This document shows, one piece after another, positions 39,001 through 42,000 of a stretch of 64,000 bases of DNA. Made by a program: the position numbers. Every line of letters begins with the position of its first letter. Positions within the stretch are counted from its first letter, which is position 1. Source of the stretch: Bacteriovoracaceae bacterium (GTDB lineage: Bacteria > Bdellovibrionota > Bacteriovoracia > Bacteriovoracales > Bacteriovoracaceae); contig JBLWTJ010000001.1 in the NCBI GenBank assembly GCA_048270185.1, forward strand, positions 192,001-256,000, written 5' to 3'.

Positions 39001-42000
39001 AGGTGAGTCTCGCTAAAAGAATCTTTAAGATATTCAAACTCTGCACTATCTCCCATAAAGCCGTGACTAACGATAATTATATCGCCTGTCGGGTTTCCTA
39101 TTGCTCGTAGCTTGAAGTCCTTGCTGATGTTAACGTAGAGTTTTGACATGAACTCACTAAGTTTAGGGCGACTTATTTTAATTCCTGTTTGGAAGTTCGA
39201 AAGATGAGTCGTTTGTAGAATGAAGTTAGGTTTTTCAAACGACGTTAATGACTCATCGATTATCTTATCGACTTTGCGAATGCCTAATTGATTTGAAAAA
39301 CTCATTCCAATTAAGTTTTCATAACTCTTGTGCTTGATAGGAATAATAAAATTAGGGCCCAGGCCAAGGTTGCTAAGCTTTGTTTCAAGTATTTCAGGAT
39401 TAATATTTTCGGCCGCTTTTTGAAAAACAAAATCACGTCGGCCATGAATTTGATAATTGCCTCTTGAGTCAGCTTCTATATGATCACTAACTTGAAAGCG
39501 ACCTGCAAATGGCGCCTCGCCAAGATAGCCTAAACTAATACTTTCACCTACAAAAAATATTTTATCATCAACTTCAGAAACACTGCCTCTCATTGGTTTT
39601 CCACTTGTGGTAAGTGTTGATAGATCAGTTGTTAGCTGGGTTGCAAGAAATTGGGCACTCGTTTCAGTAGCGCCATATGAATTTGATATTTTAATGCCGA
39701 GATCAATTGCTTTCTTTATTAACGAAGAGTCTACCTTTGATCCACCAAGAACGATGCCACGTAGGCGTCTTAATTTATCTAGAACAGAGTCACAGTTTAG
39801 TAGCCTTTCTAATTGTAGTTGAACGAGAGATATTATCGATACCTGAGGATTTTTGCTGAGATCATCAGTAAGATTTGCTGGCGAGATAATTGTTAGGCTA
39901 CTACCTGTAGCGATAGTTCGCCATATGATCATGATCGCACCAATGTGAAAAAGAGGCAGGGATAGGGCCCAATTATCTTCTTTAGTGATATTGTAGAGAT
40001 CAACAGATGCCTTTGCACTTGCCATAAAATTCGACGTTGATAGGCAAACCCCTTTAGGTTTTCCCGTTGAGCCAGAAGTGAAGATAATACTTGCTGTGTC
40101 TTTGTGAATTTTGTCTTCTGTAATATCTTCCAAAGCATAATCTGCTGGAGAATGATGGAGCCTGCTCTTGTCTAATAAAACTGCAATGCCGCCGTTATTT
40201 ATTATTTTTAAATAATTGATGATAAATTCTTTTGAAGATGATGCTTCCCAAGGGAGGAGGGAGAGGCCGGGATCATCGCTTTGCTCACTTATTAAATTTC
40301 TAAGTTCATTATATGTTAGAGAAACACTTCCATTCTCATAAATAAAAGGAGCATCATAATCTTTAATAAGGTCTGTGATAAAACCTTTCTTATTCATAAC
40401 TTCTAAGAAGGCCTACAACGATTCCAGCAATACGAAAATCATTTTCACCTGTAATAACAAATGGAGAGAGTCGATCGTTTGCTGGGTGTAGTTCAATAAC
40501 ACTATTCTTTCGATAGAAGTTTTTAACTGTTGCCTCATTATCAACGAGAGCAATGACAGTCTGCCCTTGGTTAGCATTTTCTTGTGCACGACAAACAAGA
40601 GTATCGCCTTCAAAGATTCCATCATTAATCATCGAGTCACCTTGAACATTTAGTGCAAAATAGCGCCCTGGTCGTGCAACCATATGATTTGGTACTAAGG
40701 TGTGTTCACTTGGGTTTTCAATGGCCTCGATGGGATTACCTGCAGCGACGTCTCCAAGAAGAGGAATTTCACTAAAGTGTTGATTAACCAGAGGTGTTTC
40801 AACTTCTTCAACTTCTAATAACTTGATTCCACGGCGGGCATTCCAGTCGACTTCGATTTTTCCCGCATCCTGAAGATAGTGCATATACTTATTTACAGAT
40901 CCGAAGGATTTTAGTCCGAAGTGGTCTTTAATTTCCTTTTGAGTAGGTGCGAAGCCTTCTTTGAGGTAGTATTCTTTAATATAGAGATAAACTTGGTTTT
41001 GTTTCTTTGTTAATGCCATATTATTATATTATGCGTAAGTATTGCGTAAGTCAACATTTCAATAACTTGCAATAATTCACATTTATTGTGAAAAATGTTC
41101 ACGGAATTTGTGAAATTTTCTTACAATCACAATTGTTTCATTGAATTCGTTGACGTGCCCCCCTGTCATTAGATACATATATGCCATCAATTCATACGGG
41201 AGGAGAAATGAATTTTTTCACTAAGTTTAATAAGCTTGTTTTTATTACTGCATTATTACTATCTGCGAATGCATTCTCCATTCATGAGTCTGCGCTTTCG
41301 AGTTTAAATGAGAAGAAATTTGAGTCTTTAAACCCACAGGACAAAGAGCTTTATGCAACTATTGTTGATAAAGAAGTTGTTGAGGTTTACCCACGTTATG
41401 ACCTTGTTGAAGAAGCTCTTTTAGGTCAAGAGAAAGCTGCTGGTGGTGGAATCGGTGAAGTGATTATGATCGCTGATAAACTTCTAGCACTAGGACAAAA
41501 AATTTGGAAGATTGTTGAAGCAGGAAGACCTGTTAGTAACGCTAACTTCACAAAGCCAGTTAGTATTATTCCAAATATGAGTGATGTTAATGGTACTTTT
41601 ACATCGATGACAAATTGGAAGATGCCGATGGTAAAGTCTTTCAGAGTCGCATACAAGAATGGCTTTGGTAGTGAAGTTGTTTCATTTGTTTATACAGTTG
41701 TTTTTCAATACGGTGGAAAGTTTGAAGGGAAGGGTTCTTATATTACAGGACTTTTTGTAACAGCAAGTAACGTAAGTGTTTCTTGGGGATTTAACTTCAA
41801 TGCTTCAAGTGAGATCATGTCAATTACTAACCAAGGTAGTGCAGATGAGCCAATTGCTTCAGCAGTTGTGAATATCAAATACAAGGTTAGCTCTGTTCTT
41901 AAATCAATCGATGAAAGTGATATTTTCTTTGTTAATGGACAGGGAATGTTACAGAGAATGAATTACTAATTCTTTAATTAATATTCAATAATTAAAAAGG

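Follow-up and report, generated by a model that had tools for sequence, protein, structure and literature searches.

The lexA locus and its operon partners

The window, a 64-kb stretch of a Bacteriovoracaceae genome located at C1:192001-256000, carries on its minus strand a lexA gene (40390..41019) whose 209-aa product matches TIGR00498 (174.9 bits, cut-off 110.95), PF01726 and PF00717, and combines a winged-helix DNA-binding domain with an S24 peptidase. The Ala-Gly bond and the Ser/Lys dyad are intact, with A93, G94, S129 and K166 invariant in nine of nine aligned sequences, and tblastn detects only this one LexA-like gene in the genome. Helix 3 reads SFGSVNKY and places G40 opposite E. coli N41 and K44 opposite E45, in an alignment that is free of gaps at K44.

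The putative binding site for a LexA dimer is a direct repeat, CTTACGCA-ATA-CTTACGCA (41032..41050, minus strand), recognised by reading the sequence, by pattern scans and with a matrix. Its core is TACGC-N6-TACGC, with a period of 11 bp and a footprint of 16 bp, and the repeat fills the 17-nt spacer of the predicted lexA promoter. The upstream half-site TTACGCA (41043..41049, minus) begins on the final base of the predicted sigma70 -35 hexamer TTGACT (41049..41054, minus), and the downstream half-site TTACGCA (41032..41038, minus) directly adjoins the predicted -10 hexamer TAATAT (41026..41031, minus), which lies 17 nt past the -35 hexamer and is followed 6 nt on by the ATG. The repeat itself ends 12 nt before the ATG, and the lexA start appears to be of the leaderless type. 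The first C of the full motif is part of the -35 hexamer; among 48 lexA-promoter sites from other genomes the second C is found in 31 and the final A in 29. Within the window the motif has a single match without mismatch, at 41032-41050; the three other matches have three mismatches each, where 4.0 matches are expected at up to three mismatches.

Downstream, a gene for a menE-menH-like fusion (38328-40397, minus; both profile matches short of the cut-off) shares 8 bp with lexA at its stop, and because of this overlap it may be co-transcribed with lexA and come under SOS control. The divergent gene (41181-41969, plus; likely start 41208), with no NCBIfam or Pfam match and probably a secreted product, has a hairpin 3' of it near 41995-42022; it begins about 130-160 bp from the repeat and is probably not regulated by it.

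In the genome of 3.35 Mb the pattern TTACGCA-N4-TTACGCA has two perfect sites and one with a single mismatch, and these lie, as the survey's finding had stated, upstream of lexA, recA and umuDC. Only a gap of 4 works: other gaps between the heptamers (0-11, eleven tried) gave no perfect site and at most one single-mismatch site each. The recA-recX site (C5:11908-11925, minus) is located 151 bp upstream of its operon. The site upstream of umuD-umuC (C1:1555497, plus) runs opposite to transcription and extends over the -35 region and the spacer, followed by TATAAT, 6 nt and the ATG; the UmuD encoded behind it has 127 aa. With a matrix trained on 48 distinct lexA-promoter sites from other genomes, the three sites score 29.6, 28.8 and 28.3 bits, whereas the next-best site reaches 17.8 bits and the reversed genome a maximum of 17.6, a gap of about 10 bits. 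A larger regulon was considered and rejected: eight further matches at 13-17.8 bits compare with seven in the null (maximum 17.6), and most of them lie inside ORFs. A regulon of three operons in this genome, lexA, recA-recX and umuDC, is well supported, and no further strong site was found in it.

Two box types across the family

Sites of the window's type (C-type, at up to one mismatch) occur in 98 of 151 family genomes, with 288 sites against 42 for a reversed-pattern control. Thirty such loci were cut out, one per genome, and 21 of them lie at SOS genes (recA 11, umuD/S24 6, lexA 3, Y-polymerase 1), as do 12 of the 13 perfect ones. The survey had assigned 17 of 24 family loci to lexA, recA, umuD or an SRAP gene; the SOS genes were borne out, but no SRAP gene was seen among the 30. 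A second pattern, TACGG in place of TACGC, is present in 59 of the 151 genomes, and 18 of 30 G-type loci cut out lie at recA (10), lexA (6) or umuD (2). The loci away from SOS genes (9/30 C-type, 12/30 G-type) are in many cases within ORFs.

The two patterns were compared at the lexA promoters, of which 130 were fetched and 129 used, one being too short upstream. Both kinds of box have the same geometry there, and residue 44 in helix 3 separates them. The 77 promoters of non-Asp LexAs carry TACGC-N6-TACGC in 70 cases and TACGG in none, with seven lacking a box within 130 bp; the 52 promoters of Asp LexAs carry TACGG-N6-TACGG in 41 cases, TACGC in one and a tie in one, with nine lacking a box by the same measure. 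The same division is seen genome by genome in the 116 family genomes with a single LexA type (70 non-Asp, 46 Asp): a C site is found in 69/70 non-Asp genomes and a G site in 5/70, while Asp genomes have a G site in 38/46 and only 14 C sites against 12 in the control. Two genomes with Asp LexA, G022 and G054, have boxes that are mixed or C-like, and many Asp-type lexA promoters bear two copies of the box.

It would be mistaken to regard genomes without the C site as devoid of an SOS box, an idea ruled out by the 35 Asp-type genomes among these 53 (for 15 of them no lexA locus was fetched). Asp-type LexA probably also accounts for the site-less genomes of the survey, taken as a group and not matched one by one. 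The proposal that the repeat is the LexA operator of Bacteriovoracaceae is well supported as an operator reading, but not for the whole family, 46 of 116 genomes being Asp-type, nor for this family alone. A family-specific box is ruled out: the identical TACGC box precedes lexA in eight other families of the Bdellovibrionota.

TT[GT]AC is found immediately 5' of the box in 74 of the 77 promoters of non-Asp lexA genes, and 66 of these 74 boxes are located 34-36 nt upstream of the start codon. A Shine-Dalgarno-like word is found in 2/75 non-Asp lexA leaders and in 39/52 Asp leaders.

Several individual loci deserve mention. In L015 (G022), L180 (G117) and L181 (G149) a dinB-type Y-polymerase gene and lexA point away from each other across a common operator region. 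LexAs with a VVD or VHD helix have no box within 130 bp (L121, L128, L131, L151, L152 and L156, in G091, G100, G069, G114, G047 and G001); their genes may lie inside operons, since the upstream DNA looks coding, and recA is without a box in three of these six genomes. Two LexAs, L157 (G099) and L158 (G068), measure 243-245 aa, with some 35-40 residues inserted close to the linker. A tandem array of an 11-bp unit that contains TACGGA, with seven overlapping matches, occupies G012:C16:70712-70794, in a genome in which no LexA was found.

LexA as the probable binder

The most probable reading, to which we assign a probability of roughly 0.92, is that the repeat is a LexA operator, i.e. an SOS box and putative dimer site. 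Its basis consists of the sites, the genes behind them, their place in predicted promoters, the intact catalytic residues of LexA and the co-variation between box and protein; from these we infer binding, repression, induction and residue-base contacts. As far as sequences can tell, LexA is very likely the protein that binds the repeat.

The co-variation extends beyond lexA itself. Thirty recA loci were obtained from 36 genomes, picked by hand and not at random, 24 of the loci being from Asp-only genomes; among the latter, 18/24 have a mismatch-free TACGG box in reverse orientation at recA, and 0/24 have a perfect TACGC box there. Six genomes possess two lexA copies, with a C box at all six non-Asp copies and a G box at five of the six Asp copies, and recA bears a C box in the four of these genomes examined. 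Five genomes, 92-99% complete, have no PF01726 match, although the assemblies are incomplete and the absence of LexA is therefore not proven; their recA genes have no box, the best matches having 3-4 mismatches of 10. Two of the five are congeners of G028, which has both lexA and a recA box. The non-Asp LexAs of the family group on a single branch in a quick tree (SH-aLRT 99), so box and protein could have been inherited together with no contact between them; an independent-pairs test of residue against box, with few pairs (one on starred branches, three on all), is not significant. Both LexA trees are quick trees, and 27 rows were left out of the second.

Could another protein read the repeat? 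A different DNA-damage regulator with lexA among its targets, be it an activator of the WYL/DriD or PafBC kind or a repressor of phage type, is very unlikely. The genome does encode one WYL-domain gene, and the box overlaps with the -35 region, from which some activators work; the WYL gene, however, has no box upstream (best match three mismatches), and the box type tracks the LexA helix residue even between two lexA copies of one genome and is missing from recA in all five genomes in which no LexA was found. The box moreover sits in the spacer either way round, forward at lexA and reversed at umuD and at Asp-type recA, and because it occupies the spacer in either orientation a repressor fits. 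The same reversal, found at umuD and at recA of 18 Asp genomes, speaks against the idea that the repeat is a promoter element, read by an alternative sigma factor or as an extended -35 and kept by descent. The fixed distance of TTGAC 5' of the box at lexA (74/77) and at many recA promoters is what such an element would predict, but the box is doubled at many Asp-type lexA promoters and its bases change along with the LexA residue, so that this explanation is hardly credible.

If LexA is the binder, its dimer would sit on two half-sites that face the same direction one helical turn apart, and would block the sigma70 promoter core of lexA, recA-recX and umuDC by occluding RNA polymerase. DNA damage would generate RecA*, which would provoke self-cleavage of LexA at A93-G94 and release the three operons. 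It is probable that one DNA-binding domain is rotated on its linker, since the footprint remains 16 bp and one half-site is turned in place.

In E. coli, LexA E45 reads the first operator base pair. Both N41 and E45 contact bases there, and E45K abolishes binding to the recA box, according to passages of bioRxiv 10.1101/2020.07.14.201889. Read in the same sense as E. coli CTGTA, the half-sites are GCGTA with G40 and a non-acidic residue 44, CCGTA with G40 and D44, and RTGTA with N40. This suggests a code in which residue 44 (E. coli E45) would set base 1, Asp reading C (CCGTA) and Lys, Arg and other non-acidic residues going with G (GCGTA), and in which residue 40 (E. coli N41) would set base 2, Asn going with T (the RTGTA of Bdellovibrio) and Gly with C. 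The E. coli protein agrees on both counts, with an acidic residue where base 1 is C and Asn where base 2 is T. Since GCGTA goes with six different residues at position 44 (R, K, N, A, T and Q), this residue does not by itself dictate the G.

Bdellovibrio, the wider phylum and known SOS boxes

Work by Campoy from 2005 is reportedly the source of the validated Bdellovibrio targets, lexA and a mutagenesis cassette. The published LexA site of B. bacteriovorus, attributed to Campoy et al. 2005 in passages of PMC8565304 and PMC3323433, is the palindrome TTAC-N3-GTAA. Compared with that eight-base palindrome as given there, the window's site belongs to the same phylum and has the TTAC letters in common, but it is a direct repeat with G-C and not A-Y at half-site positions 4-5, it contains no palindrome, and recA belongs to its regulon. 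The three sites of our genome read TTAC-GCA-ATAC, -CAAC and -AAAC, and GTAA follows neither half of any of them.

The survey had called the box unlike that of Bdellovibrio, which did not survive inspection of the Bdellovibrio promoters. At lexA these carry a TTACAY-N5-TTACAY repeat, again with an 11-bp period and at the same promoter place as the window's box, and the palindrome overlaps its second half-site. Two Bdellovibrio records, L352 and L355, have the 11-bp repeat after TTGAC in the same position. In five Bdellovibrio-type genomes the repeat is found at 26 sites against two in the control, distributed over lexA (4), RecA-like genes of the imuA type (3), Y-polymerase (5), radical SAM (2), cinA-recA (1), HTH regulators (2) and others (9). 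The palindrome occurs 17, 25, 27, 42 and 105 times per genome against 33, 52, 62, 53 and 85 in the control, and is not enriched; it overlaps seven of the 26 repeat sites, all at lexA or an imuA-type gene, where two forward half-sites are followed by reverse ones, the inner and outer of which are 11 or 12 bp apart. A repeat at recA was sought and is absent in three of three g114 genomes, in agreement with the title of Campoy et al. 2005, whereas both g76 genomes have one before cinA-recA (0 and 1 mismatch).

That the direct repeat is the minimal LexA operator of Bdellovibrio has a little better than even odds, and the frame chosen for the published site may be the wrong one. Somewhat short of even, in our estimate, are the chances that LexA binds but that TTAC-N3-GTAA is the minimal operator in Bdellovibrio, with the repeat accessory or cooperative and direct-repeat geometry confined to clades with TACGC or TACGG. 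In favour of this, the palindrome stems from experimental work, as the passages of PMC8565304 and PMC3323433 cite it, it is present at 4/4 lexA and 3/3 imuA-like sites, and the distance between outer and inner reverse half-sites is 11 or 12 bp and not a constant 11. Against a minimal palindrome stand the enrichment of the repeat (26 versus 2), which the palindrome does not share, the 19 of 26 repeat sites without it, including all five Y-polymerase and both radical-SAM promoters, and the position of the repeat, which follows TTGAC exactly as in the window.

Repeats of the Bdellovibrio type at L381 (G276), L398 (G267) and L385-L395 (G273) precede small unannotated genes and include four sites clustered within 10 kb, close to a gene for a Phd-type antitoxin; these genes are candidate additional members of the regulon.

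For the rest of the phylum, 55 lexA loci were picked by hand, not at random, from a phylum sample. Beyond the family only boxes read at lexA promoters were counted, because in other families many single one-mismatch matches are at control level. TACGC-N6-TACGC precedes lexA at ten of ten phylum loci with an SLGTVQNY helix, spread over the eight families mentioned above, and in six of six named records with this helix, one of them titled Syntrophotalea. LexAs with an xxNSVQxY helix go with a TACAY repeat at 11/11 phylum loci and in 8/9 named records (including the Bdellovibrio isolate L352). L327, from the Oligoflexia, has the helix SLGTVQDY and a TACGG box, and its Asp LexA is nested among Asn LexAs (SH-aLRT 90). 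A palindrome, CCATA-N6-TATGG, is found at 15 of the 55 loci; the 12 LexAs of this kind that the tree includes group as a single branch (SH-aLRT 93), and five such genomes contain nine occurrences against none in the control.

The latter palindrome, in the form CCATAC-N4-GTATGG, is a second SOS-box candidate with E. coli geometry, situated before lexA genes with an xVGTVQDH helix; it was read at L436-L444 (G254, G266, G207, G280, G173) and at the 15 phylum loci. TTCGG-N6-TTCGG was seen by eye before lexA in L225 (G198), L248 (G176) and L282 (G172), one of them with a mismatch. LexAs with His-44 and TACGA or mixed TACGA/TACGG repeats, at L227 (G225), L257 (G256), L283 (G258) and L279 (G255), would represent a further variant of the code. 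In G151 and G181, two genomes of family f2 without a match to lexA, the 18-mer GTACGCAATTTTTACGCA occurs 6-7 times per genome, sometimes near contig ends, and probably marks the terminus of a mobile element present in several copies.

There is about an even chance that the picture holds as a whole. In that case the 11-bp direct repeat would be the common form of the LexA operator in much of the Bdellovibrionota, read by a two-residue code at the N41/E45 positions (Gly with a non-acidic residue for TACGC, Gly with Asp for TACGG, Asn for TACAY). The B. bacteriovorus palindrome would be no more than the point where two direct-repeat operators meet head to head, and the regulon there would be larger than published (dinB and others). 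A sister clade reading CCATA-N6-TATGG over the same 16-bp footprint would be the natural pair for a switch from inverted to direct repeat by turning one DNA-binding domain.

Direct-repeat LexA boxes have a precedent in the alphaproteobacterial GTTC-N7-GTTC of Caulobacter crescentus (passages of PMC9578287, PMC8565304 and PMC3323433). As described in those passages, it is likewise an 11-bp-period direct repeat bound by a canonical LexA before lexA, recA and translesion polymerases; it differs in LexA lineage, in its half-sites, which here are TACGC, TACGG and TACAY, and in its regulon, which in our genome has three operons. The window's box, with TACGC, has neither GTTC nor GAAC half-sites; geometry alone is common to both, and appears to have arisen independently. 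The E. coli SOS box, TACTG(TA)5CAGTA or CTGTA-N6-TACAG in the passages of PMC9578287, resembles the box described here in its 16-bp footprint, in half-site centres 11 bp apart and in a half-site of the form xxGTA, and the equivalents of E. coli N41 and E45 are the co-varying residues; it is an inverted repeat and not a direct one, with CT as its first two bases where GC or CC stand here.

In the literature listings searched, with subscription journals and regulon databases outside its scope, no report of this motif or of a Halobacteriovorax or Bacteriovorax LexA was found; the supplementary motif tables of PMC8565304, PMC3323433, PMC3901139, PMC13148647, PMC3789691, PMC12288472, PMC9578287 and bioRxiv 10.1101/2020.07.14.201889 may bear on novelty. 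That a further lineage should have a LexA box of its own is to be expected and so of limited surprise; what gives the present case its value is the range of variants across the phylum, together with a revision of the Bdellovibrio site that can be put to the test. The analysis provides a probable SOS box and regulon for Bacteriovoracaceae and several other predatory lineages, for which we found no earlier description, and it opens to direct test, in a model predator that can be cultured, the motif given in reviews as the example of a short palindrome. Natural variants that are one residue and one base apart would form a testbed for how direct repeats are bound by a LexA dimer with two-fold symmetry, and for how LexA boxes change, given a related clade that keeps a like half-site in palindromic geometry.
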